Shown here in pieces: positions 3,465 through 32,000 of a DNA stretch of 32,000 nucleotides. A model generated the notes under the pieces. It had not been told where the DNA came from and did not search any database. It saw only the letters and a program-made list of their open reading frames with translations. A program made the position numbers and the translations under genes. The DNA comes from Nostoc sp. PCC 7120 = FACHB-418 (GTDB taxonomy: Bacteria > Cyanobacteriota > Cyanobacteriia > Cyanobacteriales > Nostocaceae): assembly GCF_000009705.1 (NCBI RefSeq), contig NC_003272.1, positions 2,100,001-2,132,000 of the forward strand, given 5' to 3'. Position 1 is the stretch's first letter. Every line of letters starts with the position of its first letter.

Positions 3465-3487
3465 CCAAAAATTTATGCTTTTTCACT

Positions 3488-4900: not shown

Positions 4901-4930
4901 ACGTTGTTTAGAGAAGTGAGAGGTGAGAGA

Positions 4931-5004: not shown

Positions 5005-5010
5005 TGTCTT

Positions 5011-6810: not shown

Positions 6811-6890
6811 GATTGACTGTTGACTGTTAACGGTCAACAGTTAACAGCCTTCACGATGGATTGTGTAACCTAAAAGCAGAGTAGCTTACG
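6811..6890. repeat. Dispersed repeat, copy A (STRR3-like ACTGTTG heptamers plus about 50-nt core)
   Basis: Its reverse complement matches 10669..10749 at 42 of 49 core positions (hand alignment), and both copies carry adjacent CAACAGT/GTTAAC-type heptamers. Confidence 0.7.
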
Positions 6891-10668: not shown

Positions 10669-10749
10669 TAAGCTATTCTGCTTTTAAATTGCACAATCCA
10701 TTGTGAGGACTGTTAACGGTTAACTGTTGACCGTTGACCGTTGACAGCC
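10669..10749. repeat. Dispersed repeat, copy B (inverted relative to 6811..6890)
   Basis: See copy A. Ends in GTTAACGGTTAACTGTTGACCGTTGACCGTTGACAGCC heptamers. Confidence 0.7.
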
Positions 10750-11711: not shown

Positions 11712-11776
11712 AAGAGGCAGGGAGCAAGGGGAGAATTTACTCCAAGATTTTCGCCCAATCCCCAATCCCCAGTCCC
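11712..11776. repeat. Dispersed repeat with STRR1-like heptamers (CCCCAAT/CCCCAGT), copy 1
   Basis: Its reverse complement matches 13596..13660 at about 36 of 40 core positions (attggggattggg-gaaaatcttggagt-ctcccc). Heptamer copy number differs between the copies. Confidence 0.7.
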
Positions 11777-11792: not shown

Positions 11793-13184
11793 TTATTCGA
11801 TCTGTAAGACCACTAAAGTCATATCATCATTATTTTGTCTGTCAGCACCGATAAATTGCTGAACTCGGTCGAATAGGTAATCGACAATTTCTTCTGGGCC
11901 GTTACAGTACCGACAAGCCGTACTGAAAGCAGTAACAAAGTTTTCTTCATCAAAGCGATCGCCACTGGCCGCAGCCGCATCGGTCAAACCATCCGTATAA
12001 TAAATAACTGTATCACCAGGTTCTAGCTGTGCCTGACCGTCTTCGTATTGGCTATTAGCATCCAGCCCAATTAACATCCCCAGAGTATCTAGGCGGGTAA
12101 CACTTTTTGTAGCTGCGTGCCACCACAAAGGGGGATTATGTGCTGCATTACTATAGGACAAAATTCGTTTATGCGGATTATATTCAGAATAAAATAGCGT
12201 GATGAAGCGGTGAGAATTTTCCAAATCCGCATACATAACTCGGTTGAGATTCTGCAAAATCCCCGCCGGAGAGTTACCGTGTAATACTTCTCCCCGTAGC
12301 ATTCCTCGCATCATGGTCATAATTAACCCCGCAGGAACACCCTTACCCATGACATCACCAATCACCAAACCCCAACGACCCGAATCTTGACCAAGTTTGG
12401 TGTATGTGTGAATTTGGCTTTGATTCGTGGGAATAAAATCATAATAATCTCCACCAACGCGATTGGCCGGTCTACAGCGTGCTGCTAGACTAACACCAGG
12501 AATATGAGGACACTGACGTGGCAGTAATCGTCTTTGAATCTCTGCACCAATTTCTAATTCTTGGTCTAGACGTTCTTTTTTCCTCAGTTCTACTGCCAGT
12601 TCGTCGTTTTCAATCGCCACTGCGGTTTGGTCTGCAACTAACCGCACTAACTTTTGTCTAGTTTCTGTCCAACTATACTCAGGATCGCGGCTTAATACAT
12701 ACAACCATCCCCGTTCTGTATGCTTGACTAAAATTGCCGTACCAAAGATTTGCACATCTGGCCCCAGGTAGCGGTGCATCTGGTCATCTAGCATTCCTGT
12801 GGCGTTAGCTAGAGGCGCAGTGTTAGGTAAAAGTGTGATTTGGCTACTAGCTGTTTCTAAGGCTTTGCGGATGTTTTTGCGTTGGCGGCTGTCTTGCCAA
12901 TGTAATTGTTCTAATCTGACTTGGCCATTAGGTTTGTAGAGAAACAGCGCGCTACCATCAGCATCCGTCACTCTTGTTGCCATTAGAGGAATTAGTTCCA
13001 AAAACTGGTTCAGATTATTGAAGCTCCTCAGGGCAAATCCTAAAGAACTCAGCAAATCTTGGATTTTGTTCTGTTCCCGGTGCAATCGTGACACAAGTTC
13101 TTTGAGTGCTACGACTGGTGTGACATCTGTCGCAGCACTATTATTGTTGTCCGTGGGTTGAGAGGAAAATGGAGGCACAGGCAC
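11793..13184 (-). CDS. GAF domain-containing PP2C/SpoIIE-family serine phosphatase
   Basis: C-terminal SpoIIE motifs GGDYYDF, IGDVMGKGVPAGLIM, YYTDGLTDA and DDMTLVVLQI. The N-terminal region of about 200 aa is GAF-like. Confidence 0.85.
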   Translation of the reverse strand: MPVPPFSSQPTDNNNSAATDVTPVVALKELVSRLHREQNKIQDLLSSLGFALRSFNNLNQFLELIPLMATRVTDADGSALFLYKPNGQVRLEQLHWQDSRQRKNIRKALETASSQITLLPNTAPLANATGMLDDQMHRYLGPDVQIFGTAILVKHTERGWLYVLSRDPEYSWTETRQKLVRLVADQTAVAIENDELAVELRKKERLDQELEIGAEIQRRLLPRQCPHIPGVSLAARCRPANRVGGDYYDFIPTNQSQIHTYTKLGQDSGRWGLVIGDVMGKGVPAGLIMTMMRGMLRGEVLHGNSPAGILQNLNRVMYADLENSHRFITLFYSEYNPHKRILSYSNAAHNPPLWWHAATKSVTRLDTLGMLIGLDANSQYEDGQAQLEPGDTVIYYTDGLTDAAAASGDRFDEENFVTAFSTACRYCNGPEEIVDYLFDRVQQFIGADRQNNDDMTLVVLQIE

Positions 13185-13595: not shown

Positions 13596-13660
13596 GGAAT
13601 TGGGGATTGGGTGAAAATCTTGGAGTCATTTCTCCCCCTGCCCCCTGCCCCCTGCCTCTT
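13596..13660. repeat. Dispersed repeat, copy 2 (inverted relative to 11712..11776), with a (CCCCCTG)x3 array
   Basis: See copy 1. It abuts and overlaps the ftsY stop codon. Confidence 0.7.
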
Positions 13661-15429: not shown

Positions 15430-15530
15430 GACTGGGCTTCCGCCGTGAGCTTCAACGTTCAACTGAGCGCTCACGCCGTTCGCGTAGCGTCCCACAGGGA
15501 AGTCCGAACGGGAGCAGAGGAGATGAATTA
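15430..15530. repeat. Dispersed hairpin repeat sharing a core with 31860..31974
   Basis: CGTGAGC(15444-15450)/GCTCACG(15469-15475) stem. GTTCGCGTAGCGTC (15478-15491) is the exact reverse complement of GACGCTACGCGAAC at 31862-31875, and the flanks are also similar. Confidence 0.6.
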
Positions 15531-17621: not shown

Positions 17622-18518
17622 TTAATCCCTTGACCCTAGTTCCTCTTTTGCTGCTTCCTGGTTGCTGTCACTGCTAGGAACTATCTCCGGTTCTAAACTA
17701 GGGATAGGTAGATATTTCATTTCCCAGGCTTTCAATAAAATCAGGTATTCATAAAAAGCTTGTAATGTACACCAAGCCATTCCTGCACGTCCATCTAGAC
17801 AACCGCCTAAGAGAAAGTACATATATAAAAAACGTAACAAAGGTCTAGCTGGTAGTCGTAAAGACAAGTCTTTTAATGCACGCCGCCTAGCAACTTCCGA
17901 TTTACCAAACAACAAATCTCGCCAGTCAACTTTGCCATTTTCTAATTGATATAAAGTCTCTTTCGCCTCATCCGTAGAATAACGGTTATGTTTTTCAATC
18001 CAACGGCTCAAACCCTTGCTGCAAGTGTAGTGAGGATAGGTTTCTTTTAAAAAGCTGGTAGCGCCTTCACAAACTTCTCGTTCCGTATGCCCGTAGTCGG
18101 TAAACCAAACTTTGCCATGTTGGAACAGACGCATCTGATAACGGGGATATTGAGTGCTATGGCGAATCCATTGGTTCATGAACATCACCCGTTCAGCAAC
18201 GTAGTAACCAATGTATTCGGAAGTGGTAATTGCTTGTTCACACTCGGCAAACAACTCTGGTGTCATCCGCTCATCAGCTTCGAGAATATATACCCATTTG
18301 TGTTTTGGAGGGAGAGACTCTAGCATCCATGTACGTTGGCGACCGTGGCTTTCAAAGGCGTGCCGCACAACACGAATGGGATAACGATTGGCAATTTCTA
18401 CAGTGCGATCGCTACTACATGAGTCTACAACGATGACGTCATCTGATAACATCGCTGATTCTATACAACTTGCAATATCTAGTTCTTCGTTATAAGTCAG
18501 TATGTAAATAGAAAACAT
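17622..18518 (-). CDS. hpsK: Family-2 glycosyltransferase (HpsK-position gene)
   Basis: GT-A N-terminus YILTYNEELDIASCIES...VIVVDSCSSDRT. Last gene of the hps-like array. The letter is assigned by position only. Confidence 0.6.
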   Translation of the reverse strand: MFSIYILTYNEELDIASCIESAMLSDDVIVVDSCSSDRTVEIANRYPIRVVRHAFESHGRQRTWMLESLPPKHKWVYILEADERMTPELFAECEQAITTSEYIGYYVAERVMFMNQWIRHSTQYPRYQMRLFQHGKVWFTDYGHTEREVCEGATSFLKETYPHYTCSKGLSRWIEKHNRYSTDEAKETLYQLENGKVDWRDLLFGKSEVARRRALKDLSLRLPARPLLRFLYMYFLLGGCLDGRAGMAWCTLQAFYEYLILLKAWEMKYLPIPSLEPEIVPSSDSNQEAAKEELGSRD

Positions 18519-18649
18519 TGCCCAGTCTTACAGTAATTTTGCTAAACGCTAGGTATCTTTAAGTATTGCCAAAAACAGTCTATATACCCTATGGCTAACG
18601 AAGGGCTAAGAGTGTTGATTAACAAACACGCCCTAGCCCCTAGCTTAAA

Positions 18650-19492
18650 TTAGCGTGCAGGTACTTTACCTTTACGTCCACCGCCTTGGAAAGCACCGCT
18701 AGCTCTGAGTCCTGACCAACCGATAATGATGTAGCCAATAGACAAGATCAAACTGCTGATACCAATTCGCAGTCCAGATTTCCACGCATTGTCTCTAGCT
18801 TGCTTGGCAGCGTCTTCTTTTCGCTGGCGAATTTGGTTTAATCTTTGATTAGCCAGTCCTTGAGGATCTGTTTGCTGGGCAATAAACTGATCTAATTCTT
18901 GAGGATTGGCTTTAAATTTCTTGAGTAATTCTTTCTGCGCTGTTGGAAGTTGGGGATTATTCAAAGCTTGTTGATATTTTTGATCATCTCGCAGCAGTTC
19001 AGTGAATTGAGCTTTAGCTTGGGTTCGCAATTGTTCTAGTTGAGCCTTTCCTTGCTCGGTGTTGGCTTGGGCTTGAAATTGAGATAATTGGTTTTTGAGT
19101 TGGTTTTCTGCCTGGTCTGCCTCTTGATTGATTTGGTTTACTGTTTGCACACTGGCTTGTCTCACATTATTGAGATGTAAGGGAAAAATCAGCAGGAACA
19201 TTAAACCCAAAAGGCTGGAGAGTATTAAAACGGGAAATCTTAAATCAAATCCTTTCGAGCCACCATCGCTAGCACTGTCCATCCAATAGCCAGTAAATAA
19301 TGCTCCCAAGCCAACCAAAGGGACAATACCCCGGTCAACTAGTGCTGTTGCTAGGTTAATCTGCCATAACCTGTCTGTAGGTTGAAATGGCAATAACAGA
19401 ATCAGAAAATCCAGCAAAAACGAAACAATTAAGACTATCCCTACGATTTTAAGGATTAGGGAGGCATTTACAGCAGCAAAGCGGTTAACCAT
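18650..19492 (-). CDS. hpsJ: HpsJ-like membrane protein (three N-terminal TMs, Q-rich coiled coil, C-terminal TM)
   Basis: Architecture read from the translation. Position between the DUF2064-like gene and the terminal GT2 matches hpsJ. Confidence 0.55.
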   Translation of the reverse strand: MVNRFAAVNASLILKIVGIVLIVSFLLDFLILLLPFQPTDRLWQINLATALVDRGIVPLVGLGALFTGYWMDSASDGGSKGFDLRFPVLILSSLLGLMFLLIFPLHLNNVRQASVQTVNQINQEADQAENQLKNQLSQFQAQANTEQGKAQLEQLRTQAKAQFTELLRDDQKYQQALNNPQLPTAQKELLKKFKANPQELDQFIAQQTDPQGLANQRLNQIRQRKEDAAKQARDNAWKSGLRIGISSLILSIGYIIIGWSGLRASGAFQGGGRKGKVPAR

Positions 19493-19742
19493 AGTTTTTC
19501 AAATTGGTACGTACTGAGTTCAGATTGAGTGATTGTCCTCTTTAAAGTTACTTGAATATCGCTCCCGTAACCTTGCTTGTTATATGAATCTACCCATATA
19601 TATGAAATAAAACGCAATGCCACCATGTTACAAAATTTTTACCCTTGGGTTGGAAACTGCTCTACATTGGCATCGGTTTCCTAGAGTGTAACTAAAGATA
19701 ATTATGTATTGTATAATACAAGGGTGAATGAGATAAATTGAC

Positions 19743-20393
19743 CTACCTCATCTTAACTTCTGTTTCCCAAATTCGTTGCCAAATGGGTAAATCATCTGGT
19801 CTATCAACATCAGCCAATGGTGGTAAGTGATAGGATGAGAGGTTGAGTTGATGAGCAATATCCACAGTTTGGTGTAATACTTGCGAAGTCCCCCAGTCGA
19901 TGTTGGCAAATAATTCAGGGATGAAGCGACGTAAAGCAATTAAGTAGTAACCACCATCAATGGCTGGACCAAGTACTAAGTCAACTGTATAAATTTGTTC
20001 GAAAGCTTGAGCAAGAATATGAGAATTTAATCCAGGACAGTCGGTACCGATAATTACAACTTGCTTTGCCTGACCTTGAAAGGAATCATACAGCGATCGC
20101 GCCATCCGCGAACCCAAATCTCCATCACCTTGAGAATGGTAAACCAATTCAGCGCCAAGCCAATCTTGCATAAGTTGCAGGTCTCCCCCCGCAAACCGAA
20201 TTTCTAAAGATATATTAATTAACTTTTGCAGTTCCTTAACCTGAAATAAAGCGTATTCAGTCATTTGCCGTTGCAGCTTGGCAGCACCAATAGTACCCAA
20301 AGCAGGTATCAATCTGGTTTTTGTTTTCCCTGGTTCTGGATAGCGCGTGAAAATAATTAAGTGCTGTTGTAAAGTTTCTGATGATTTCAGCAC
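19743..20393 (-). CDS. hpsI: DUF2064/TIGR04282-like transferase-fold protein (HpsI position)
   Basis: LIIFTRYPEPGKTKTRLIPALG N-terminal motif and DGGYYLIAL, characteristic of DUF2064. Confidence 0.6.
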   Translation of the reverse strand: MLKSSETLQQHLIIFTRYPEPGKTKTRLIPALGTIGAAKLQRQMTEYALFQVKELQKLINISLEIRFAGGDLQLMQDWLGAELVYHSQGDGDLGSRMARSLYDSFQGQAKQVVIIGTDCPGLNSHILAQAFEQIYTVDLVLGPAIDGGYYLIALRRFIPELFANIDWGTSQVLHQTVDIAHQLNLSSYHLPPLADVDRPDDLPIWQRIWETEVKMR

Positions 20394-20425
20394 AGCATAC
20401 CTTGTTTAAGCTAACTAAAAATATC

Positions 20426-20983
20426 TTAATAGCAATAATCACCGCCGCTATTAGCCCTATTACGCTCTTTAGCTGTACGCATTGCTCCCAAAATTGTCGA
20501 AACATAGACACAACGCTTAATCATGCCTCTAGACTTACTTGATAAAGTAATCCTGCCTAGAGGTGGTTGTTTAACACTTCCTCGATAATCAAATTGAATT
20601 CGCCTCACATTGTTTGATTGCTGTAAAGTGCTTTCTCCATCTAAACGCACACGAGAATCTAGATTATTCCAATTAGCATTCGTAGGGCTGACACTAGCAG
20701 GATGAACTGCCCATTGAACTATACCATTTTGTTCGCGGAAACTAGCTTGCCACGTCAATTTTTCCTTACTAGCTTGGCTTTGGGCTTGTCGTATGGCATT
20801 GTGAACTTCGTATTGAGCTTTGTTGAGGCGTTGAGTATCTACAAAAGTTAACCAGTAAGGTAATGCTAAAGCTGCTAATATCCCAACCATGAGAATAACT
20901 GCCAATATCTCTGGAAGTGTAAAACCCCGTTCATTTTGGCAATTTAAGCCATTTTTATTATCAAATAGAGATAGTAAAAGCAC
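20426..20983 (-). CDS. hpsH: Prepilin-type N-terminal cleavage/methylation pseudopilin (HpsH position)
   Basis: NERG|FTLPEILAVILMVGILAALALP, with Glu at +5. Paralog of 24238..24933. Confidence 0.7.
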   Translation of the reverse strand: MLLLSLFDNKNGLNCQNERGFTLPEILAVILMVGILAALALPYWLTFVDTQRLNKAQYEVHNAIRQAQSQASKEKLTWQASFREQNGIVQWAVHPASVSPTNANWNNLDSRVRLDGESTLQQSNNVRRIQFDYRGSVKQPPLGRITLSSKSRGMIKRCVYVSTILGAMRTAKERNRANSGGDYCY

Positions 20984-21005
20984 CTGGATATATGTTGTGA
21001 ATATT

Positions 21006-22007
21006 TTAACTGCCAGAAATTGCTGATAACTGTGGATTGAGAGATTTTGTCCTCATTTTTGCTAGTAATTCTGTAGATAAACCAGCAGGTAATATAATAA
21101 TTATCAGAGCTTTAAATAAAAGTTTTAATGTAGAATTTATCCGCCTCATTCTAGAAGAATCATACAGAAAATATTGCCAAATAAATTTAACAGCAGCTAG
21201 ACCTTTACTTCGACTGTAAGGCTTTTGCAGGGCTTTACAAGCTAAATATTTGTAAAGATTAGCTATACTCAAATGCAAAATATGATTACCAATCGCAGGT
21301 CTTGCTTGATAAGCTTTTTCTAGTACTTGCTTACAAGCTTTTTCCTGTCTCACCAGATTAGAAGATAGAGAATTACTACTAACCCGATATAATATTTGGA
21401 CATAAGGAACAGCCACAAAAGAATATTTATTAGCTAATCTTAGCCACATATCCCAATCTTGAGCGGCCTTTAGTGATTCATCAAATCCTCCCAATGCAAT
21501 TAAAGCTTCTTTGCAAATTAAAGGATTAGAGCCATTTTCTAAAAAATTGTTGATAAACAACTTTTTATAGACATCTCCATTAAGTGTTACACGTCTACCA
21601 GAAATTAAAAAATTACCATCTTCATCAATATAATCAGTCCAGCTATATGCAACATGAAAACCAGGATTGTTATGTAAAGCCTCTAATTGTGACTCTAGTT
21701 TATTAGGTGTCCAAATATCATCTGCATCTAGGAAACTGATGAATTTTCCCACTGCAAGATTTAAACCCCGATTCCGGCTAACATTTCCTCCAGCATTTTC
21801 AAAGGAAAATATCTTAATCCTCGAATCTTCAATTTGAGAAACAATGTCTAATGTTGCATCTTGTGAACCATCATTAATGACAATTAATTCAAAATCAGTA
21901 AAAGATTGATCTAAAACCGAATCAATTGTTTTTTTGATAGTTTTTTCACAATTATAAGCTGGGATAATTACAGAAATTATTGGTAAATCAAAATTGGATT
22001 CAGTCAT
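21006..22007 (-). CDS. hpsG: Family-2 glycosyltransferase (HpsG position)
   Basis: ISVIIPAYNCEKTIKKTIDSVLDQSF.DFELIVINDGSQDAT and the DADD motif (FLDADDIW). Confidence 0.7.
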   Translation of the reverse strand: MTESNFDLPIISVIIPAYNCEKTIKKTIDSVLDQSFTDFELIVINDGSQDATLDIVSQIEDSRIKIFSFENAGGNVSRNRGLNLAVGKFISFLDADDIWTPNKLESQLEALHNNPGFHVAYSWTDYIDEDGNFLISGRRVTLNGDVYKKLFINNFLENGSNPLICKEALIALGGFDESLKAAQDWDMWLRLANKYSFVAVPYVQILYRVSSNSLSSNLVRQEKACKQVLEKAYQARPAIGNHILHLSIANLYKYLACKALQKPYSRSKGLAAVKFIWQYFLYDSSRMRRINSTLKLLFKALIIIILPAGLSTELLAKMRTKSLNPQLSAISGS

Positions 22008-23007
22008 TGTTTAAACTTATATCTTCATTGGTTAAATTATTGAAATAAAACATGAGTGAGTATATAGGACTCAAAAGACTACCCAAATAAAAATTGAACT
22101 CTACAAGTGCGACTATATCTCCCTTGAGATTATTTTTGTACTTCATTATGTGGTGAAATAGTCTGCGAATATTGCCTAAAATTGTTCTCAGCAAAATTAT
22201 CGACAATTCACCTTTTTTAGCATTAATTAGTCTGAGTTGAAAAATACATAAACCACAACCACGAGCGACATTAACTAAGTAACTTGTTTCAAGTCGTCCG
22301 TGGGGTATTTTATGATAGATTTCCATTTTGGGGTTATACCAAATTTCCCAACCAGCTTTATATATATATAAGAGAACCTCTGTATCTTCTCCACCAATCA
22401 TTAATTTTCCAATTCTCCCTTTAAAAACTAACTGTTGCGGTACGCTTTCTCGCCAAGCTTGTTTACGGATAACAAGAGCAGCACCAGGGGGTAGTTTTAA
22501 ATTTTCAGCATCAAAGATATAAGCTTTTTGACCATGTTCTCTAATAGCTAAAAAAGCCTGAATTTGGGAAAAATTATCTGGTGGTGTAACTTCAAAATCA
22601 CCATGTATTTGACCACTCCATGCACCGGCGCGGGGATGTTCTTCGCCAAAATTATAAGATTGTAAAACCCAATCAGGCGCAGCTAAGTTATCATCATCTA
22701 AAAAAGCAACAAATTTACCTTGGGATTCCTTGATTGCTCTGAGTCTTCCATAGGCTAATCCCTGTTGTGTTTCTAGAAAATATTTCAACTGACATTGAGT
22801 AAATTTTTTTTGGTAATCACTTACTACTTCGGGTGTGCGATCGCTGCTATTATTATCAATAACGATGACTTCCCAACGTAGGTTTTCTGTACCTGTTTGC
22901 GCCAATAATCTGTCTAAAACTTGGGGTAAACGTTCTGCACCATTCCATGTGGGAATAGCTACGGTAAAATCAACCGTTTCAATTATCTCTTGTAGTTCTT
23001 GTTGCAT
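22000..23007 (-). CDS. hpsF: Family-2 glycosyltransferase (HpsF position)
   Basis: TVAIPTWNGAERLPQVLDRLLAQ...VIVIDNNSSDRT and FLDDDN. Tandem paralog of 23029..23997. Its stop overlaps the hpsG start by 8 nt. Confidence 0.7.
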   Translation of the reverse strand: MQQELQEIIETVDFTVAIPTWNGAERLPQVLDRLLAQTGTENLRWEVIVIDNNSSDRTPEVVSDYQKKFTQCQLKYFLETQQGLAYGRLRAIKESQGKFVAFLDDDNLAAPDWVLQSYNFGEEHPRAGAWSGQIHGDFEVTPPDNFSQIQAFLAIREHGQKAYIFDAENLKLPPGAALVIRKQAWRESVPQQLVFKGRIGKLMIGGEDTEVLLYIYKAGWEIWYNPKMEIYHKIPHGRLETSYLVNVARGCGLCIFQLRLINAKKGELSIILLRTILGNIRRLFHHIMKYKNNLKGDIVALVEFNFYLGSLLSPIYSLMFYFNNLTNEDISLNND

Positions 23008-23028
23008 AATCCCAGCTTTCTCAATTAT

Positions 23029-23997
23029 TTACTTACCACTTTTAGTTAAGTACCCATTTTTCCACAGATAGAAAGGACTAATTAGGCTACTGAAAAACAG
23101 TTCTGTTTCACAAGCTATGACTAAATCAGTTTTTATCTTGGTTCCGTACTTAAGTAGTTGTAAAATAATCTTTCTGGTATCATTTATCATGTATGCAACA
23201 AGGACAAATGGTTTGTAATATCCTTGAACATTTGTTGTCCTGGTAACATACCGACTCAAACCAATCCCTCTAAAGAAGGGAATTAAATATTCTTTTTTTA
23301 ATCTAGAGCTTGGTATTCTATGATATATTTCCATCTCTGGGTTATACCAAACTTCCCAACCCGATTTTTGCAGGTAACACAGCATTTCTAAATCTTCCCC
23401 AGTCAGCATATTACCTGCAACTCTACCAGTTAAAATTGGCTGTTCTGGTACACTCTCTAACCATGCTTCCCGGCGGACAACCAGTCCAGCAGAGGGGGGA
23501 AGAAGTTTTTTTCTCGGCTCGTAAAATAGAGGTTTATTACCGCGTTCTGTAATTGCTAAAAAAGGAATAATACTCTTAAAGTTTTCTGGTGGTTCTACCT
23601 CCCAATCCGGGTGTATTTGGCTACCATAAGCCCCTGCTTTGGGGTACTTTTGAGCAAAAGCACAAGCGGCTGCTACCCAAGTTGGGATGGGGTAGTTATC
23701 GTCATCTAAAAAACCGATTAATTTACCTGAAGCAACTTCTACACCTTTTTTTCTGGCATAGGCTGCACCTTGTTTAGCTTCAAAGTAGTATTTTAAAGGA
23801 TAGGAGCAATGCCAATTTTCTTGGTACTGCTGTACAACTTGGGCTGTATTGTCAGTGCTGTTGTTATCGACAACAATAATTTCCCAGGAAATATTTTCGG
23901 TGTTAATTTGGTTTCGCAGCCGTTCTAATAATTCTGGCAAACGATTCGCACCATTGTAAGTCGGTATAGCTATAGTTAAATCAAGATTTGCAGTCAT
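23029..23997 (-). CDS. hpsE: Family-2 glycosyltransferase (HpsE position)
   Basis: TIAIPTYNGANRLPELLERLRNQ...IIVVDNNSTDNT and FLDDDN. Confidence 0.7.
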   Translation of the reverse strand: MTANLDLTIAIPTYNGANRLPELLERLRNQINTENISWEIIVVDNNSTDNTAQVVQQYQENWHCSYPLKYYFEAKQGAAYARKKGVEVASGKLIGFLDDDNYPIPTWVAAACAFAQKYPKAGAYGSQIHPDWEVEPPENFKSIIPFLAITERGNKPLFYEPRKKLLPPSAGLVVRREAWLESVPEQPILTGRVAGNMLTGEDLEMLCYLQKSGWEVWYNPEMEIYHRIPSSRLKKEYLIPFFRGIGLSRYVTRTTNVQGYYKPFVLVAYMINDTRKIILQLLKYGTKIKTDLVIACETELFFSSLISPFYLWKNGYLTKSGK

Positions 23998-24143
23998 TTT
24001 TTGCAGTTTGTACTTAGATTGTAGTTTCTGGTTGGGTGTGTCTGGATGATGTTAAAGACTTAACCGAGGTTATTTTAGGCTGAACTGCAACTGATGGCTA
24101 GTAAATATTTAAGCTAAATTAGTTAAAAGTTAAAATTAAAAAT

Positions 24144-24180
24144 CTGCACCTTATATTTCAATTTTGCTTTGCAGGTGCAG
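24144..24180 (-). terminator. Hairpin plus T-tract between the hpsD-like and hpsE-like genes
   Basis: CTGCACC(24144-24150)/GGTGCAG(24174-24180). On the minus strand it is followed by ATTTTTAATTTTA. The long 23-nt loop lowers confidence. Confidence 0.35.
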
Positions 24181-24237
24181 GTTATTGTACAGTATTCTTA
24201 CTAAGATTTAAGAAAATTTGCTACATCATCCACTTAT

Positions 24238-24933
24238 TTAATTACAATTGTTATCTTTCTCGGTCATTGTTGCACCCAGAATCGTTTTTAAGATAACGCA
24301 ACGCTTAACGTTATTATTTGCTACAACAATTTTGATATGTGGTATTGCAGTGGAGCCAGTTGGTGCTGGCGGATCAAATTCTAGACCTGTTAGACTACCT
24401 ATGTAGTCGAAAGTAATTGTTTGTGGTGTGTTTAAATAAGTGGAACTTGCATTGACAGCAGTACTAACTTTGTTTTTGCTCGTGAGATTGGTCAAGAGTT
24501 TGATTTGTCCAGTAGAGCGGATGTCTAAATCTTCACCTAGAACTTGCCAGCGTTTTTTAGATGGGGTGTCAACAATAGTAGATGCGGCTTCAGAATCAGG
24601 ATGAATAACAATCTTAGGAATTTGGCTTTCAACTTTAAAACTGACACTATATTTTAGTTTTTGTCGTTTAGCTTGTCGCTGTGCTTCTTGTATGGATGCT
24701 AAAACAGCATCGTTAGCTTTGTTGACTCTTTGACGATTAACGAAAGCAGACCAGCCAGGAAGAGCGATCGCTGCTAATATACCTACCATCATCACTACTG
24801 CAATCAATTCTACTAAACTAAAGCCGGAATCTGATTGAGTGTATATTCCAAACTGGCGATTAGGCAGACATAAAGATTTGATTATGCTATTTTTCCTGTC
24901 GATATTGAACGGATGTAAACGTGTTTTCTTCAT
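24238..24933 (-). CDS. hpsD: Prepilin-type pseudopilin (HpsD position)
   Basis: SDSG|FSLVELIAVVMMVGILAAIALP. The predicted leader is unusually long (37 aa) if the annotated ATG is used. Confidence 0.7.
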   Translation of the reverse strand: MKKTRLHPFNIDRKNSIIKSLCLPNRQFGIYTQSDSGFSLVELIAVVMMVGILAAIALPGWSAFVNRQRVNKANDAVLASIQEAQRQAKRQKLKYSVSFKVESQIPKIVIHPDSEAASTIVDTPSKKRWQVLGEDLDIRSTGQIKLLTNLTSKNKVSTAVNASSTYLNTPQTITFDYIGSLTGLEFDPPAPTGSTAIPHIKIVVANNNVKRCVILKTILGATMTEKDNNCN

Positions 24934-24970
24934 GATCTACTGCCTTAAATTACGCTATTGTTTTCGGCAT

Positions 24971-25993
24971 TTACTGAGTAAATAAATATCCACGTCCTTG
25001 TACTCGTATACTTGCATTTGGAAAATAAGCTCTTTTGTTATCGGCATAATTGAGGTTATTGCTTTGTAGGCGGGCGATCGCATTACCTCTCAAAAATACC
25101 TGTGCCGTAGTGTTAACTCTGTCAACACAGGCATAAAAACTCGTCATTTTAAACGTATCGCGGGTATTAAAATTAGTTGTATCTGGAGCTACCAACGTTG
25201 AGCCAGTAGGACAGGTAATCTTTGATGGTGGTATGATTAGTGGTGAGTTTGGTATTGTCTGGTCAATATAATCAACTAAAACTACAGGCGCTCCGGGAGT
25301 GACATTATTCACTACATCTGCTCCATTAGTATCTTTAGTAGTGTATTGGCTGAGTCTTTTCCAGGCGTTCATCTTTTCATGGATAGTACCTGCGCCATCA
25401 AGGCTGAATAGTGCAAAACCTTTACTTGGGCAATAATCATTACTGATATATTTGCCTGTATATCCATCGCAAGTTACACCACTACTAGCCGTTGTCAGCA
25501 CACCATCCCTAATCTGCCACCTAGCAATACGAGCAGCATTAGACCAGTTAGTATTGCTGTCTTTGATTAAATAGTAAGCAACCAATGAATACACATAAGT
25601 ATCATCTTTTTCACCGGCTGTAACTGTAATGATGTCTTCAATTAGTTCTCTTTTCCAAAAAACTAGGACAGGAACTCTATCTGTTGAGGTTGAACTAGGT
25701 AATTCATTTCTAATAGCATCAATACCAGCGCTATCGTAGATATAGATAGCTTGTTGCAAATCGCGGGCAATGTAATCTACTGCTGCTTGAATTTCTTGTT
25801 CTGAGCTTACCTTTGCCTGTTCTTGTCGGTCTGCATTCATGACGCTGATCATGAAGCCCATTAATGGTGTAATTACCAATACTGCCAAAATCATAGCTAC
25901 CAATAATTCAATCAAGGAAAAACCACCAACTTCCTCTATGAGCTTGGAGCGTTTCAACTGGTTTTGAAGCAGGAATTTTAATGCCCTCATCAT
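24971..25993 (-). CDS. hpsC: Prepilin-type pseudopilin, large (HpsC position)
   Basis: EVGG|FSLIELLVAMILAVLVITPL; 340 aa. Confidence 0.7.
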   Translation of the reverse strand: MMRALKFLLQNQLKRSKLIEEVGGFSLIELLVAMILAVLVITPLMGFMISVMNADRQEQAKVSSEQEIQAAVDYIARDLQQAIYIYDSAGIDAIRNELPSSTSTDRVPVLVFWKRELIEDIITVTAGEKDDTYVYSLVAYYLIKDSNTNWSNAARIARWQIRDGVLTTASSGVTCDGYTGKYISNDYCPSKGFALFSLDGAGTIHEKMNAWKRLSQYTTKDTNGADVVNNVTPGAPVVLVDYIDQTIPNSPLIIPPSKITCPTGSTLVAPDTTNFNTRDTFKMTSFYACVDRVNTTAQVFLRGNAIARLQSNNLNYADNKRAYFPNASIRVQGRGYLFTQ

Positions 25994-26050
25994 ACTCTGG
26001 TTTTCCCTTTAGTGAATATTGATGGATAGATACACATGAGATTTTGCTCA

Positions 26051-26767
26051 TTAATTACAGGCTGTATTCGTCGCCACTCCAAGACGCTGACATAAAGCCC
26101 TAAAGGAAGTACTAGTGCTAGAAATGTCGGTTGTCATTTCGAGTAGTGGTGCTTGCCGATCGCCTAAGTTACCAGTAAATGAATTTTGTGTTTTCTTATT
26201 AGATTGACCAGTACTAGCAGTTCGAGTTTTCGTAAAATCAACATCTGCCCTATAAACTCGAATGGCCAAGCGATAGCCATCATTGGCTGAACTTCCTGGA
26301 ACAGTAATTCGGGCAGCCTGAATGTAATATTCAAATGGTTTGTTCGTACAATCTGTTGTGGTGATATTGCCGGATCTTGTAAAGCAGTACAAGCCACTTG
26401 CCGATGAAGGGAGTGCCATTTTAGTTAAATCGTTAACTAAATAATCTTCTGGTCTCCCCGTGATCGGTGGTGTACCGGCAACATCGGCAATCCGTCTGGG
26501 ATCAGATGTGCTGGAAGCAGCAACTTCAATGGTTTGGCTTGGTGCGGCGATCGCTCCAGTTCTCACACCATCAATGAAGGATTTGGCAGCTTGTGTTGCT
26601 AGTTCCACACGTCTTGCCTGAACACGGGTAGCTGTTGACATCACTAGTACAGGTGCGATCGCTGTTAGCAAAATTGCTACTACGATGATTGCTACCAAAG
26701 ACTCAATGATGGTAAAACCGGAATCACTACAAGAAGTTTTTTGTTGCTGTTTTTTAAGTTTGATCAT
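26051..26767 (-). CDS. hpsB: Prepilin-type pseudopilin (HpsB position)
   Basis: SDSG|FTIIESLVAIIVVAILLTAIAP. AGGTGA lies upstream of the ATG. Confidence 0.7.
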   Translation of the reverse strand: MIKLKKQQQKTSCSDSGFTIIESLVAIIVVAILLTAIAPVLVMSTATRVQARRVELATQAAKSFIDGVRTGAIAAPSQTIEVAASSTSDPRRIADVAGTPPITGRPEDYLVNDLTKMALPSSASGLYCFTRSGNITTTDCTNKPFEYYIQAARITVPGSSANDGYRLAIRVYRADVDFTKTRTASTGQSNKKTQNSFTGNLGDRQAPLLEMTTDISSTSTSFRALCQRLGVATNTACN

Positions 26768-26797
26768 TGCTCATCACCTACTTTGAGAATTTGATTC

Positions 26798-29700
26798 TTA
26801 CGAGCAAGAACCACGTTGATCTGCATCTATGGCATTTGTATCGTCTGCGGCTTTCTTGGCACACAACAGAATTCTCACCCAAGGATCATCTCTACCAACT
26901 TCTCGGAAGAACTCATCAGGCAAATCATCGGGTATTGTGACTAATTTCTGGGCTAATAAGTCAGGCGATTGAGATAGTAACGCCACATCATAACCCCATT
27001 GCCGCAGAGGAGGTAGGTAGTAGGGAACTGTACCTCTATCGCCAGCGCCAAAGTTATTTATTTGATAGGCGCTACCTGAAAATACAGGCATAAATGGTGC
27101 AGTAGCATAAGTGCTACGTTTAACTTGATAAAAAGCCCCGTTGATTTTGAGTGCTGTTTCGGTAGCAGCAGTATTCCAATTTTCAATCAAGCGTACAAAG
27201 TTGTGTAAACCACCATTATCTTCCGCCCCACGAGTTGGGCTAGTTGTTTTAGGAACTGCGGCTGGGGTGTCTCCAACTGCGGCAATTACGTTGACAGTCG
27301 TTGCTGTGGCTTCTTGTAACCAATTACCATGCTTTCCAGCTTTGACAAAATCGTTATCTGGAACCTCAGGAGTACCAAATGGTCTGTTGTGTTGGAACAC
27401 AAAATCATAACGAATGTTGTTACCAGAAGCAGTTCCTTCTAGCCAAGGTATGAAGTAGGGCTGGCCGCTTGCATCTACCCCGTCTTTTGGTAGTGTTGTT
27501 CCTGTTAAAGGCCAGTCAAACTCTGCTATTTTGCCATCACTGGCAACGCCATAAACTTTTAGTGGAGTTGTTATTGCACCAGTATCCAAATTACGTACAA
27601 AGGCAATTCTAGATGGTTTATTTGGGTTAATATCACTGGTATTACAGTCTATTGGCGAACCACCAATGACTCCTGTTTTAATTGATGTTGCTGGTTTACC
27701 AATAATATCTGCTACACCGTTGTTATCTTTATCTCTCCAAGTACTCTGTCCTATGGCTTGTGTTGGGCAGGCATTTTTAATTGTCCAATTTCTAGGCGCA
27801 TCGCAAGTACTAGCGTAACAAACTTCCAGTAATAGCTGTTTAGCCCGAATTTTTCGTACAATTGGGGTGACAAAGTTGTTGAGATAGGAACTTCCTTGGA
27901 ATCCTGTTGTTGCATCTAAATCTTTGGGAAAGGCTGGAAAATTTCCATTGCTATCGGCGGAGGGATTAAACCAATTGGCAACTGGTACAAAAGAGTTTTC
28001 TGTGGAGAAAGTCCCGGCAGTTGCATAGTTAATCGGACTAGTAGGAACTGTACTTTGGATAAGCTGCCAATCATGGTCTGCTTCGTTGCGGAAGCCAAAT
28101 CTAAAGTTATTAGAAAGTACAGTCAGAGAATCTGCTAATACCGCAGCAGAGCGCCATTGATCACCAGTTGTACACTGCGGTAATCTAGGGTCGCCTGGAC
28201 GACAAGCAAAGTTAGTATTTAAGCCGGTGCGGCTGTAGAAATTGCCCCAATCAGCATCTAATGCTGTGTTAAATTCCTCTTGAGTGTGAAGATTAAAGTC
28301 ACCCTTAATATAGGCAGGCAAATTACTAGCTAAAATCAGTCCCTTCTCTGCGTCTCGATAGGTATTGCTGTCATTACGGGCAATTTTTTGACCGTTAATG
28401 AGCATAATGGCATTAGGACGACGATTAGGATCAAGTCTGTAATCTACGGCACTCTCTAGCCTCTCACTTTCAGTGGGAGCATTTGGATCTGCTGCCGCAC
28501 TTAAATCTAGTAGTGCATCATCACGAGTAGCGTAGATAATACCGCTATTGGGTAATAAATATTCCTGTGCTGGTGTGGTGGTACCGATTGTTTTTCTACG
28601 CAGCTTATTAATATCTAAGACAGTGGCACGGATTTCTAAAGGTTTTCTGTTTCTTCTAAATCGATCATAATTTCTACTCCCAGTCGTAATATCAGTTGCT
28701 TGAATTTGTCTGGGGTCTAAAAAAGCAACTTCATAAATAGAGCCATGATCAATGACTGTATCTGTAGGAGTATTCAGAGTACCATCAAAAATTGCCAAGC
28801 CACAAATTGCTGCATCCACAGCAGACTTTTCTGAGAGAGTGCGTTTCGTCGCATCTGTTTTGTTTAAAGCTCTTCTCAGTAATCTATCATCAATTGAACG
28901 TCCATTGGGATAGGTTAAATCTGCCAGATAACTCAGGACACTGCTGTAAGAACTTTCAGTCTTAGTTGTAGGAAAAGGGTAAACTATACCATTGTTGGAT
29001 AAACCACCAGTTGCACCATTAATTGGCAGGGTTGATATATTTTGCGCCGTAGTGCTATTAGTAGGGTCATAATAGCTGCTAACACAAGCAATAGGTGTGG
29101 GACTAGTCTGACTGTAACTAGCAGATTTGTAGTGATAGACGGCTGTTGCCCGCATCCGCAGATATGGTTGATCTGTTGGTTGACGTACTTCATAAGTAAC
29201 GTTTAGTCCATAATCTTTATAAGGTTGAATGGGGCTAGGTACTGAACTGGTTCTAACAGGTGAAAGATCAGGCCAAATTTGCTGGTTAAGTCCAGTAAAG
29301 GTAGTTGACGACAAATTTGTAGCAGTAACAGTATTAGGCAAATAAATTCCCGCGCCAGTTACTACTCGCAAGCCACCGACGGGTTCTTCTGGACTATTTG
29401 GTACTTGGGCTGCTGCTAATTCCCAATCTCCATCTCGGTCTGTACTACCTAAATCTTTCAATGTTTCTACACGACTGCGACGAGTGCGATCGCCATCGCC
29501 ATCATCCCATTTATAGTTACTAATAGTTTGGGTATCATCGGCATTTGGCCCTACAAATGCTCCTTTAGCTTGATCCCACCAAAGTTGAGGTAGGTTGTTA
29601 CCAACGACAGCGCGATCGCCAAAGTATCCTTCTACACCTTGTAATTGTCTTGAAAGTTTACTTGGCTCAGTTGCAGAAGGTCTGAGCTTGTCAGTCCCAT

Positions 29701-31300
29701 TTGCATTTAAACTCAACCCTGCATAACCGGTTGCATTTAAGCCATCGGCAGGATCAACAGGATAAATCCAAGGATCGGGGGGACGTAAAGTATTGTCAGC
29801 ACCTTGTAATACTTCACTTTCCTTAGTACCACCAACTTTGTAATCTCCTAGAGCATCACCATCAAAAGCCACTTCAGCATAAGGAACTCTGCGGGTACGT
29901 CTTCTAAAATAAAGCTCTAGTTGCTTGAAGCGTAAACTAGCTCTTTCAGCAGTCGTTAAGTCGGTTAAGCTTCTACCTTGCTTGGTTAATACATCTTGCA
30001 TCCCTTGAGTAACTTCTGACGGGTCACTACTTTCAGCGTTAGCTGTTTGGGCAGTAACTAAACGGTTGACACGTTGAGTATAAGCTAGGCTATTGTAAGC
30101 GATTTGTCTTGGGGAATGAGAAACTGATTTATTATTAACTGATGAATTTCTCAGCGCAGTATTGGCAGCACCAGGTGTTTTACCTTTATATAGATCAATT
30201 GATACTCCATTGGTATCACTGTTCTCTGTAATTATTCCAGATCCAATATTGCCTCCAACAACTATCTTGGCGTTTTCTGGATCGTAAAAACAGGATGCGT
30301 TTCCACTAACCTGATATAGTCTGATGCCATCACCACCTGTAGGTAAACCAGCCAGAAGGTTACTGTTAGTAAAAATACGTCCATTTAACCTAAAAGCAGG
30401 CCCAGGGGCTATTCCTAAGTCATCTTCATAAACAACAGCGTTGTTAACTAAAGGCAGTTGTACTCGGTCTTGTTGAAGCTCTAAAGCCGAGAAGCCTTGA
30501 CTACCTTTCTTCTTCTCATAATTGGTGTCTGTGGGTTCTGTGGTAATGGGAACACTGGCAGTGTAAGCAAAAAAGGCTTTTTTCAACTTAGTACCATTTC
30601 TAAACCAGCCTGTGTTACCTACCAAGGCTGCACTTGTATCTTGACCTGCTCCACAACTGCTACTGACAGTCCCAACAGTCATCGGCGGAGTTCTTGCCTC
30701 TAGAGGGTTTCTGGCACGAGTATATTGTCCGCCAGTCACGGGTGGATTTTTAAAGTAAATTCCATAAAGAGCATAGCTATCAAATTTACCGTTGTTATCT
30801 GTATCTATAGGGTACATCCACGCTGTTCTAAGTTCGTTAGAACTTTGAGTAAGTTTTAACTGAGTTTCGTCGCCAAAAGTATACTCATCAATGTTTGTTG
30901 TCAATGTACTATAAAGCGCGTCATCTGTTGGTGTAGCGCGTGGTAATCTTGGGTCTTGAAATAGCTTATTGATTTTTGCCCTAGCGCGGTCAATTGCAGG
31001 GGCAGCAGCATTGAGAGCTGCCTCGTTTACACGGACGTTACTGGCATTTTTAGCCCGTTCAAAAGACCTAAATAAAATTGCTGTGGTTAGTAGAACAACT
31101 ACTAAAGCAACCATTGCTACTGTTGGTAGCACAAATCCAGCATTTGCTGCTCTGCGACGGTTTTTGTTAATAAACAGATGGCGCAGTGTGGAGTTTATCT
31201 GCCTTTTAAGTGTAGATAAATGGTTTTGTTTAAATATGCTTTTTCTAAATAATTTCGCTGTTTTTCTGATTGTCTTGACTAGCTGGCGTTTTATATTCAT
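26798..31300 (-). CDS. hpsA: 1500-aa secreted/surface protein with a pilin-like, Glu5-less N-terminal helix (HpsA position)
   Basis: A single uninterrupted ORF with AGGAAAG 7 nt upstream of the ATG. Basic leader, then ANAG|FVLPTVAMVALVVVLLTTAILF (nt 31121-31138 encode GFVLPT). First gene of the array. Confidence 0.75.
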   Translation of the reverse strand: MNIKRQLVKTIRKTAKLFRKSIFKQNHLSTLKRQINSTLRHLFINKNRRRAANAGFVLPTVAMVALVVVLLTTAILFRSFERAKNASNVRVNEAALNAAAPAIDRARAKINKLFQDPRLPRATPTDDALYSTLTTNIDEYTFGDETQLKLTQSSNELRTAWMYPIDTDNNGKFDSYALYGIYFKNPPVTGGQYTRARNPLEARTPPMTVGTVSSSCGAGQDTSAALVGNTGWFRNGTKLKKAFFAYTASVPITTEPTDTNYEKKKGSQGFSALELQQDRVQLPLVNNAVVYEDDLGIAPGPAFRLNGRIFTNSNLLAGLPTGGDGIRLYQVSGNASCFYDPENAKIVVGGNIGSGIITENSDTNGVSIDLYKGKTPGAANTALRNSSVNNKSVSHSPRQIAYNSLAYTQRVNRLVTAQTANAESSDPSEVTQGMQDVLTKQGRSLTDLTTAERASLRFKQLELYFRRRTRRVPYAEVAFDGDALGDYKVGGTKESEVLQGADNTLRPPDPWIYPVDPADGLNATGYAGLSLNANGTDKLRPSATEPSKLSRQLQGVEGYFGDRAVVGNNLPQLWWDQAKGAFVGPNADDTQTISNYKWDDGDGDRTRRSRVETLKDLGSTDRDGDWELAAAQVPNSPEEPVGGLRVVTGAGIYLPNTVTATNLSSTTFTGLNQQIWPDLSPVRTSSVPSPIQPYKDYGLNVTYEVRQPTDQPYLRMRATAVYHYKSASYSQTSPTPIACVSSYYDPTNSTTAQNISTLPINGATGGLSNNGIVYPFPTTKTESSYSSVLSYLADLTYPNGRSIDDRLLRRALNKTDATKRTLSEKSAVDAAICGLAIFDGTLNTPTDTVIDHGSIYEVAFLDPRQIQATDITTGSRNYDRFRRNRKPLEIRATVLDINKLRRKTIGTTTPAQEYLLPNSGIIYATRDDALLDLSAAADPNAPTESERLESAVDYRLDPNRRPNAIMLINGQKIARNDSNTYRDAEKGLILASNLPAYIKGDFNLHTQEEFNTALDADWGNFYSRTGLNTNFACRPGDPRLPQCTTGDQWRSAAVLADSLTVLSNNFRFGFRNEADHDWQLIQSTVPTSPINYATAGTFSTENSFVPVANWFNPSADSNGNFPAFPKDLDATTGFQGSSYLNNFVTPIVRKIRAKQLLLEVCYASTCDAPRNWTIKNACPTQAIGQSTWRDKDNNGVADIIGKPATSIKTGVIGGSPIDCNTSDINPNKPSRIAFVRNLDTGAITTPLKVYGVASDGKIAEFDWPLTGTTLPKDGVDASGQPYFIPWLEGTASGNNIRYDFVFQHNRPFGTPEVPDNDFVKAGKHGNWLQEATATTVNVIAAVGDTPAAVPKTTSPTRGAEDNGGLHNFVRLIENWNTAATETALKINGAFYQVKRSTYATAPFMPVFSGSAYQINNFGAGDRGTVPYYLPPLRQWGYDVALLSQSPDLLAQKLVTIPDDLPDEFFREVGRDDPWVRILLCAKKAADDTNAIDADQRGSCS

Positions 31301-31722
31301 GGCTGCTTTCCTGTCAAGTTATTTGCTACTAACTTCTCTTTTTTTGACAATCGACAATTATGCCCATAGATCCTATCTAAAGGCATAATTAAAGTTATAT
31401 ATATTTTGCAAAACCCTGCTTTGCTAACTCCCAATTATTGGATTTTTTACTTTATACCATTCTTTAAGTTTTGAGATTTTTCGGTAAATACTGATTTTTT
31501 TCAAAATCTTAATTTTCTAAGTAAATAAGGAGAAAAACATCGTAGGTTTACATTTCGTTTACACAAATAGAGTTCATTGGTGGGTGACTTTATGAAGATA
31601 TGGCTATTTAGATAAACCTATAGTACCCAGCAACCGAATAAAAGATGTCAGTTGCAGCAGTTTTCGTTTGTCTGGAGTAGAAAGTGATTGATTTTAAGGC
31701 AGTTCCGATGACCTCTCCCAAA

Positions 31723-31793
31723 CCCCTCTCTCTTTAAAAGTTCTGTTCGGAGGAAACCTCCGCTCAGACTTTTCGCTCCGACGCGGAGAGGGG
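31723..31793. repeat. Nested-hairpin MITE-like repeat
   Basis: Outer arms CCCCTCTC(31723-31730)/GAGAGGGG(31786-31793); inner CGGAGG-aaa-CCTCCG (31748-31762). Confidence 0.55.
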
Positions 31794-31859
31794 CTTAAAT
31801 ATCCTGAAGCTCAACGAAAAATTAGGTTTTTGAAGCCTCTACGTCACTTGCTTCTCTGC

Positions 31860-31974
31860 GAGACGCTACGCGAACAAGTCGGGAAACCCGCCCAACGTAG
31901 TGGACTTGCAGGGGAGAGGTACCCTATGGGTAGGCTTTTGGCGGTAGCGAGTCCGCGTTCGCTTTTAGCGTCTC
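31860..31974. repeat. Long-hairpin dispersed repeat (GAGACGCTACGCGAAC ... GTTCGC-ttt-TAGCGTCTC)
   Basis: Terminal arms GAGACGCTA(31860-31868)/TAGCGTCTC(31966-31974). Shares an exact 14-mer with 15478-15491 in the opposite orientation. Confidence 0.6.
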
Positions 31975-32000
31975 GTAGAGAGCGTCACAGAACTTTGTAA

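Follow-up and report, generated by a model that had tools for sequence, protein, structure and literature searches.

The hormogonium polysaccharide locus hpsA-K of Nostoc punctiforme ATCC 29133 (Npun_F0066-F0078) was reportedly defined genetically by Risser and Meeks in 2013; the hps locus bears on the gliding of filamentous cyanobacteria, on biofilm formation, and on the infection of plant partners. The subject of this analysis is a cluster of eleven genes in a 32,000-nt stretch of the chromosome of Nostoc/Anabaena sp. PCC 7120 (the window, on which all coordinates are numbered), tagged all1772 (hpsA) down to all1762 (hpsK). From its sequence, the cluster is identified as the hpsA-K locus of this strain. 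Taken as a whole, the identification, a mechanism in two modules, and a proposal for the transcription of the locus form the best explanation of the data, with a probability of about 85%.

In published class assignments the pseudopilins are HpsB, -C, -D, and -H and the glycosyltransferases are HpsE, -F, -G, -I, and -K, with HpsA and HpsJ of unknown function (PMC4284469). According to a 2025 review, hps comprises minor pilin genes alongside a synthesis and export system of the Wzx/Wzy type (PMC12288463), and a 2026 preprint proposes a FimT-PilW-PilV-PilX priming complex and reports a motility phenotype upon deletion of a Thermosynechococcus locus (10.64898/2026.02.12.705559). The system is already known, named in public annotation (NCBI uses the names HpsA, 'HpsJ family protein', and 'FimT family protein'), and under active study; a preliminary description of the window, made from its letters, was correct in treating the cluster as a described system. 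Its further view, that the assembly formed by the pseudopilins, the role of HpsA, and the polymer built by the transferases were all unresolved, is somewhat dated, as the preprint assigns the HpsA-like proteins and the review gives hps a place in synthesis, export, and pilin function.

Identity and Layout of the Locus

Six of the eleven proteins pass the five equivalog models specific for Hps families (HpsA, HpsB, HpsC, HpsE, and HpsJ) by wide margins. HpsA scores 1816 bits against NF038301 (cut-off 400) and covers profile positions 1-1502 of 1503; HpsB scores 268 bits against NF038303 (cut-off 150), HpsC 444 bits against NF038304 (cut-off 200), and HpsE 509 bits against NF038302 (cut-off 300), a model that HpsF also passes at 454 bits. 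HpsJ scores 370 bits against NF050014 (cut-off 260) and 330 bits against NF038305 (cut-off 60). The hidden Markov model comparison with the HpsA, -B, -C, -E, and -J families proposed in the preliminary description thus came out far above the curated cut-offs; for HpsD and HpsH, NCBIfam returned no model specific to either protein.

Comparison with other genomes points the same way. The locus of a draft genome labelled N. punctiforme (GCA_014698495.1, here L006; its identity with ATCC 29133 is not established) holds these eleven genes in identical order and orientation with the same DUF502 gene downstream, and two-way BLASTP between the two loci, locus vs locus, made all 11 pairs reciprocal best matches, as had been expected if the genes were hps genes; the two HpsA proteins are 50% identical over their full length. 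The published N. punctiforme tags of hpsA-K are Npun_F0066-F0073, F0075, F0077, and F0078 (PMC10581220 Table 4), and the gene order in PCC 7120 matches the tag order from Npun_F0066 to F0078. An identical eleven-gene order is found in four further Nostocaceae genomes (Anabaena subtropica, Anabaena sp. 4-3, Nostoc parmelioides, and a lichen Nostoc metagenome-assembled genome; L001-L004). An earlier comparison paired all1770 and all1765 with N. punctiforme gi 186680616 and 186680621, five genes apart (PMC2821919), the distance that hpsC and hpsH should show. The search with HpsA surfaced a protein labelled N. punctiforme; among the best 120 matches of the HpsG homologue search the N. punctiforme reference protein was absent. 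The claim that gene order and domain content are those of hpsA-K is borne out by the equivalog matches, the collinear reciprocal best matches, and the published gene list.

The assignment of locus tags rests on published chromosome coordinates for all1762 (2117622-2118518), all1766 (2121006-2122007), and all1767 (2122000-2123007) (PMC2211374); these equal the positions of the last, seventh, and sixth gene plus 2,100,000, so that the window corresponds to chromosome positions 2,100,001-2,132,000 and the cluster is all1772 to all1762. Seven proteins looked up by exact sequence are identical to entries in BAB73461-BAB73471, HpsA being identical to BAB73471.1.

A reading in which the cluster is a generic exopolysaccharide or arsenosugar-type glycosylation cluster, resembling hps by chance, could draw on the arsenosugar name that NCBI gives to HpsI and on the ubiquity of GT2 domains. 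The five Hps equivalog models passed by six genes and the collinearity of 11 genes with the N. punctiforme-labelled locus speak against it, as does HpsK, which reaches 35 bits against a cut-off of 182 with TIGR04283, the only other arsenosugar-named model. The equivalog matches and the collinear reciprocal best matches effectively refute chance resemblance, which is considered extremely improbable.

From 31300 down to 17622, a mechanical list of open reading frames (ORFs) gives eleven consecutive minus-strand ORFs (Table 1), at exactly the coordinates first claimed for eleven co-directional genes. The gaps within hpsA-D are 30, 57, and 37 nt, followed by 240 nt between hpsD and hpsE; within hpsE-I they are 21, -8 (an overlap), 22, and 32 nt, followed by 250 nt between hpsI and hpsJ and 131 nt between hpsJ and hpsK. 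These measurements agree with the tight spacing, the 8-nt overlap, the two blocks A-D and E-I, and the hairpin-bearing 240-nt spacer noted beforehand. The start codon of hpsH and hpsI is GTG in the mechanical ORF call.

Table 1. Features of the hpsA-K locus of PCC 7120 and its upstream region, in the direction of transcription; the slash in the pilin motifs marks the prepilin cleavage site, and the last column gives protein identity to the N. punctiforme-labelled locus L006.
Feature	Position	Strand	Length (aa)	Description	Identity (%)
J-box-like extended -10 motif	31616-31629	-		TGGGTACTATAGGT; candidate SigJ promoter for hpsA-D, about 320 nt upstream of the ATG of hpsA	
Long conserved leader	31301-31615	-		Between candidate promoter and hpsA; conserved AGGAAAG ribosome-binding block just before ATG	
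hpsA (all1772)	26798-31300	-	1500	Candidate PilX/GspK-type cap subunit or adhesin	50
hpsB (all1771)	26051-26767	-	238	Pseudopilin, SDSG/FTIIE	50
hpsC (all1770)	24971-25993	-	340	Pseudopilin, EVGG/FSLIE	48
hpsD (all1769)	24238-24933	-	231	FimT/GspH-like pseudopilin, SDSG/FSLVE	46
Terminator-like hairpin	24132-24180	-		8-bp stem CTGCACCT, 21-nt loop, AGGTGCAG, then T-run TTTTTAATTTT	
hpsE (all1768)	23029-23997	-	322	GT2 glycosyltransferase; Pfam Glycos_transf_2	77
hpsF (all1767)	22000-23007	-	335	GT2 glycosyltransferase, paralogue of hpsE	58
hpsG (all1766)	21006-22007	-	333	GT2 of Glyco_tranf_2_2 type; hydrophobic C-terminal segment	70
hpsH (all1765)	20426-20983	-	185	GspH/FimT-family pseudopilin, NERG/FTLPE	65
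hpsI (all1764)	19743-20393	-	216	DUF2064/CofC-like (nucleotidyl)transferase	66
hpsJ (all1763)	18650-19492	-	280	Membrane protein, Gln-rich central region	72
hpsK (all1762)	17622-18518	-	298	GT2 glycosyltransferase; Pfam Glycos_transf_2 E 6e-14	85

HpsA, a Giant Pilin-Like Protein

HpsA is a pilin-like protein of about 1500 aa, several times larger than PilX/GspK cap subunits. A basic leader of 55 residues precedes the motif ANAG/FVLPT, which is followed by a single N-terminal hydrophobic helix; across 56 HpsA homologues Gly at -1, Phe at +1, and Pro at +4 are invariant, Thr at +5 is nearly invariant, and Glu at +5 does not occur. The absence of Glu5 that marks a terminal (PilX/GspK-type) subunit is found in HpsA (G/FVLPT); GspK also lacks this residue. 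The AlphaFold2 (AF2) model of HpsA covers residues 41-1240 and drew on 55 homologues; it has a predicted local distance difference test score (pLDDT) of 71.6 and a predicted template modelling score (pTM) of 0.70, and features a long N-terminal helix followed by mostly β structure.

In the preprint cited above, structural clustering places HpsA-like proteins in a clade of PilX-type cap pilins termed PilX_EPS, to which HpsA of more than 1280 aa was assigned without a structural model; the terminal PilX subunit of the priming complexes lacks Glu5, and HpsA-like proteins are proposed to be a tip adhesin for the secreted polysaccharide (10.64898/2026.02.12.705559).

The Small Pseudopilins HpsB, HpsC, HpsD, and HpsH

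HpsB, -C, -D, and -H each carry a canonical class III signal peptide (G/F-x-x-x-E, with Glu at +5) and one strongly hydrophobic N-terminal segment; the four prepilin strings given in the preliminary description occur letter for letter in the translations (Table 1). The Pfam domain N_methyl is present in all four proteins, at or above the gathering score in three, and TIGR02532 matches as well. Profile matches of the Hps pilins to the α1-N helix of solved pilins reach down to E 3e-9.

HpsB matches the PilV model TIGR02523 at E 4e-7, a weak, N-terminal match below the cut-off of the model, and may, weakly, be considered PilV/GspI-like. HpsC has sub-threshold NCBIfam matches to GspJ and to PRK10557 (PpdB, a model of an E. 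coli prepilin peptidase-dependent protein), which are only suggestive of a PilW/GspJ-like subunit. The AF2 model of HpsC, built with database homologues, has a pLDDT of 85.7 and a pTM of 0.80, and shows a 54-residue helix (residues 27-80) followed by β-sheets in the 'lollipop' layout of a pilin.

HpsD is named 'pilus assembly FimT family protein' by NCBI and has weak, sub-threshold matches to GspH and to PRK10506, another model of an E. coli prepilin peptidase-dependent protein. HpsH alone passes Pfam GspH (22.6 bits, gathering score 21); its best NCBIfam match is GspG at 31 bits, far below the cut-off of 88.85. Judged by their 34% identity (E 3e-32), hpsD and hpsH are paralogues, and the locus carries a duplicated FimT/GspH-like pilin. 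An 87-nt direct repeat with 70% identity (20816-20902 and 24715-24801) lies in the N-terminal coding parts of the same two genes.

The locus is thus suggested to encode one K-like, I-like, and J-like subunit each, together with two H-like ones, an assignment made from the signal peptides, the missing Glu5 of HpsA, the weak model matches, and the preprint. In comparison with L004 and L006, HpsA-D are 42-50% identical and HpsE-K 57-86%, so over an equal evolutionary distance the pilin block diverges much faster than the rest; this would fit surface exposure of its products.

Glycosyltransferases and HpsJ

Four proteins of the locus contain Pfam Glycos_transf_2 and one contains DUF2064/CofC. HpsF, which like HpsE passes the HpsE model, finds its best match in N. 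punctiforme HpsF (58%, vs 48% for HpsE), and HpsG matches Pfam PF10111 at E 1.4e-50. HpsI passes TIGR04282 at 217 bits (cut-off 134) and matches Pfam DUF2064 at E 1e-35; this DUF2064/CofC-like fold family suggests an enzyme of the nucleotidyltransferase type rather than a classical glycosyltransferase. The NCBI name of HpsI, 'TIGR04282 family arsenosugar biosynthesis glycosyltransferase', is at odds with the conserved position of the protein within the hps cluster.

HpsJ has three predicted hydrophobic membrane segments, and its central region (residues 106-235, 130 residues) is 22% Gln. NCBIfam divides this family in three, HpsJ proper, whose model is named HpsJ_like_B, HpsJ-like A, and HpsJ-like C, the latter two described as associated with cyanoexosortase A and C. 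Adhesion to hormogonium polysaccharide requires cyanoexosortase B (PMC12188702); HpsJ and CrtB might be functionally connected.

Transcription of the Locus

The sequence TGGGTAnTATArGT is invariant upstream of hpsA in five aligned Nostocaceae genomes, and its expected number of chance occurrences in the window is 0.04. In six genomes the motif stands 320-350 nt upstream of hpsA; copies are located at 9679-9692 in L001, 4976-4989 in L002, 9650-9663 in L003, 9653-9666 in L004, and about 9653-9667 in L006, where the version GTGGGTATTATAAGC stands 347 nt upstream of hpsA. The consensus of the SigJ J-box is GGGaAtacT (PMC6495340), and its conserved GGG, A, and T are retained in the motif upstream of hpsA; TGGGTACTATAGGT is a candidate SigJ promoter of hpsA-D, a small new inference.

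RNA sequencing in N. punctiforme has shown hpsA-D to be dependent on sigJ and hpsE-G only moderately so (PMC6495340). In the supplement of that study, the values for a 'predicted RNA' immediately upstream of Npun_F0066 climb from 2 to 1602 over the time points of the wild type, against 0 to only 49 in the column block that follows, taken as the sigJ mutant; the promoter window extracted for Npun_F0066 (-60 to +20) has no motif entry in the table (PMC6495340 supplement). This published window begins with sequence that, in the aligned locus of the closely related lichen Nostoc, sits immediately 3' of the motif, which may be why hpsA received no J-box listing.

A proximal J-box-like sequence, GGGCATAAT (31357-31365), is conserved in the closest relatives only and was rejected for the distal motif. 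A near-copy of the 14-mer with one mismatch, TGGGTACTATTGGT, lies at 20286-20299 on the minus strand, about 95 nt inside the hpsI ORF counted from GTG; this could be due to chance or could be an internal promoter. Generic scans for sigma-70 promoters and terminators gave no more sites than shuffled sequence.

The leader between the candidate promoter and hpsA contains sequence blocks that are invariant across six genomes. A structured regulatory RNA in this region was considered and dropped, as RNAalifold on the six leaders gave a consensus energy of -0.5 kcal/mol and no conserved structure. Rfam returned no match in the whole window at gathering thresholds, nor in 31250-32000 at E up to 5, so the leader is not a known riboswitch.

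The hairpin in the hpsD-hpsE spacer folds at -13.5 kcal/mol, with a z-score of -1.97 vs shuffles that alone is not statistically striking; its position and the T-run are conserved in five genomes, in an alignment that includes four other genomes. It escaped the standard terminator scan owing to a loop of more than 8 nt. A terminator after hpsD is inferred from these features, and it fits the published contrast between the sigJ-dependent hpsA-D and the moderately affected hpsE-G. The stems vary among the five genomes; the loop (24153-24172) holds GCAAAATTG, which is invariant in all five. Plain terminators do not usually have an invariant loop, and this one might serve as a binding site.

Proposed Mechanism

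Two modules may be distinguished in the locus. The first, hpsA-D with hpsH, would provide a full set of the core minor pilins of a type IV pilus; after cleavage by prepilin peptidase, the Hps pilins would form the priming or tip complex of the motility pilus, which would itself be built by PilB/C/M/N/O/Q, encoded elsewhere. HpsA would be the PilX/GspK-like terminal subunit, above which, for want of Glu5, nothing could be added; its large β-rich ectodomain at the tip could serve as a plug for the filament and as a binding site for secreted polysaccharide. In the second module, the GT2 enzymes HpsE, -F, -G, and -K together with the CofC-like HpsI would build a polysaccharide repeat unit on the cytoplasmic side, with flipping, polymerization, and export carried out by Wzx/Wzy/Wza-type hps genes located elsewhere. 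The SigJ-type promoter about 320 nt upstream would drive hpsA-D, the hairpin terminator after hpsD would separate these genes from hpsE-I, and hpsJ-K would follow behind further gaps.

The window encodes no flippase, polymerase, chain-length regulator, or outer-membrane export protein, and with no Wzx/Wzy-type export gene it holds the transferase part only; in N. punctiforme the flippase, polymerase, chain-length regulator, and export genes form the separate hpsL-U loci (PMC10581220 Table 4). Conditioned medium rescues hps mutants, which makes the polysaccharide a substrate to move on and not a motor (PMC12288463). A major pilin/GspG, an ATPase/GspE, a platform/GspF, and a secretin/GspD are each absent among the scanned window ORFs of at least 80 aa; such type II secretion system (T2SS) components could be supplied by pil genes elsewhere.

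The piston model, the first to be proposed and taken up again in 2025 (PMC12475490), has the Hps pseudopilins assemble into a T2SS-like pseudopilus on the PilB/C platform that pushes polysaccharide through the secretin PilQ; the locus would then be part of a synthase-dependent slime secretion machine rather than a pilus-tip set. In N. punctiforme, polysaccharide no longer accumulates when pilB or pilQ is mutated (PMC12288463), the pseudopilin genes stand in the midst of transferase genes, and the best NCBIfam match of HpsH is to the major pseudopilin GspG, though far below the cut-off. However, the window has no dedicated gene for a major pseudopilin, ATPase, platform, or secretin; the Wzx/Wzy/Wza-type hps genes elsewhere offer a conventional export route (PMC12288463, PMC10581220); and the H-I-J-K set with a cap free of Glu5 is also the look of a type IV pilus priming complex (10.64898/2026.02.12.705559).

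Several observations weigh against the pilus-tip model and the transcription proposal joined to it. One group reports that it has never observed assembled pili in permanently motile Oscillatoria, Phormidium, or Anabaena that keep hps (PMC12475490), which argues for a pilus-independent role and is real evidence for a piston. Foldseek comparison of the HpsA 41-1240 model with the Protein Data Bank (PDB) gave no significant match (best E 0.24), and that of the HpsC model gave none at E below 0.2; its sole pilin-type matches, Thermus TTHA1219 (E 0.9) and EpsJ 3cfi (E 1.5), are not significant. Searches with phmmer and profiles of HpsA, HpsB, HpsC, and HpsD/H against PDB sequences found the N-terminal helix only, or nothing. 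As for the promoter, none of all1762-all1772 is among the genes raised at least 2-fold on sigJ overexpression in PCC 7120 (PMC2779892), which leaves the promoter proposal unsupported in this strain.

Sequence alone cannot separate the two models. The tip or priming-complex model is favoured, at slightly better than even odds, because the gene set matches a priming complex and the window holds no dedicated secretion machinery, and because a conventional export pathway lies elsewhere and conditioned medium rescues hps mutants; the piston is regarded as rather unlikely.

Role in PCC 7120

PCC 7120 differentiates no hormogonia, which is attributed to prolonged culture, and keeps orthologues of all characterised hormogonium genes (PMC6495340). 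Compared with their orthologues, all eleven hps ORFs have full length, and a strain without hormogonia thus carries an intact locus. It is possible, though doubtful, that the locus does nothing in PCC 7120 and is a silent leftover, still intact for the sole reason that hormogonium formation was lost in culture a short time ago. The lack of hormogonia, ascribed to prolonged culture (PMC6495340), and the absence of the locus from the genes induced by sigJ overexpression (PMC2779892) agree with this view; the eleven full-length ORFs, and the plausibility that part of the locus acts in vegetative cells or heterocysts, speak against it.

A second role beyond motility is put forward tentatively: hpsE-G with hpsH-K, whose transcription behind the conserved terminator of hpsD could be independent of that of the pilin block, might make a fucose-containing polysaccharide for the heterocyst envelope or a vegetative exopolysaccharide (EPS), with hpsA-D under a direct SigJ promoter that the published mapping may have missed by a few bases.

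The additions made here are modest: a locus copy devoid of insertion sequences (IS) in the strain that is the most tractable model for heterocysts, a long hpsA leader with a candidate direct SigJ promoter, and a conserved terminator-like hairpin. These are testable details and not a new system.

Neighbouring Genes and Repeats

The genes downstream of hpsK are housekeeping genes: DUF502, nusB, ftsY, a SpoIIE-type phosphatase gene, ftsX, BFA1, coaE, and tldD. The window contains no tRNA genes. The phosphatase gene (11793-13184) is bracketed by a 54-nt inverted repeat (11716-11769 and 13596-13649; 89% complementary, GGGGA/CCCCT-rich, spacing 1826 nt) that looks like dispersed short repeats or the ends of a miniature inverted-repeat transposable element. 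Far upstream of hpsA, 31700-32000 is G+C-rich, with no ORF and no Rfam match; within it, 31851-31875 is a 25-nt inverted match (88%) to 15478-15502 in the ftsY-nusB intergenic region, probably a dispersed Nostoc repeat. A short tandem element based on GTTAAC/GTTGAC, CTGTTGACTGTTAACGGTCAACAGTTAAC, occurs in two intergenic regions, after a psiE-like ORF (6817-6845) and upstream of the BFA1-like gene (10708-10747). On the minus strand at 2233-5982, genes for a ZnuA-type metal-binding protein, a WD40 protein, and a CobW-family GTPase look like a zinc-homeostasis cluster, and a pentapeptide-repeat ORF is located at 777-1340.

Comparison with Known Systems

The T2SS tip complex GspH-I-J-K and the FimU-PilV-PilW-PilX minor pilins of Pseudomonas aeruginosa share with the hps locus a set of small prepilin-type proteins and one larger subunit without Glu5, the hps locus having four small proteins and one large Glu5-less subunit. 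The gene order here is K-I-J-H, whereas that of the T2SS tip complex is H-I-J-K; sequence similarity of the Hps pilins to the T2SS and P. aeruginosa minor pilins is undetectable beyond the N-terminal helix, and the hps locus, unlike T2SS and type IV pilus systems, has no PilY1-type adhesin, GspG, GspE, GspF, or GspD.

The cyanobacterial EPS-type set PilX_EPS-PilV_EPS-PilW-FimT resembles the hps locus in being a complete minor-pilin set in one locus with a cap that lacks Glu5; the hps locus differs in its two FimT/GspH-like genes (hpsD and hpsH) and its interleaved transferase genes.

Within the ATCC 29133 locus, Npun_R0074 and Npun_F0076 are IS4 transposases (PMC6495340 supplement). The PCC 7120 copy, unlike that of ATCC 29133, contains no IS4 transposase gene (the H-I gap is 32 nt and the I-J gap 250 nt), and its host, unlike N. 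punctiforme, forms no hormogonia; the two loci agree in their class assignments, each with four pseudopilins, five transferases, HpsA, and HpsJ.

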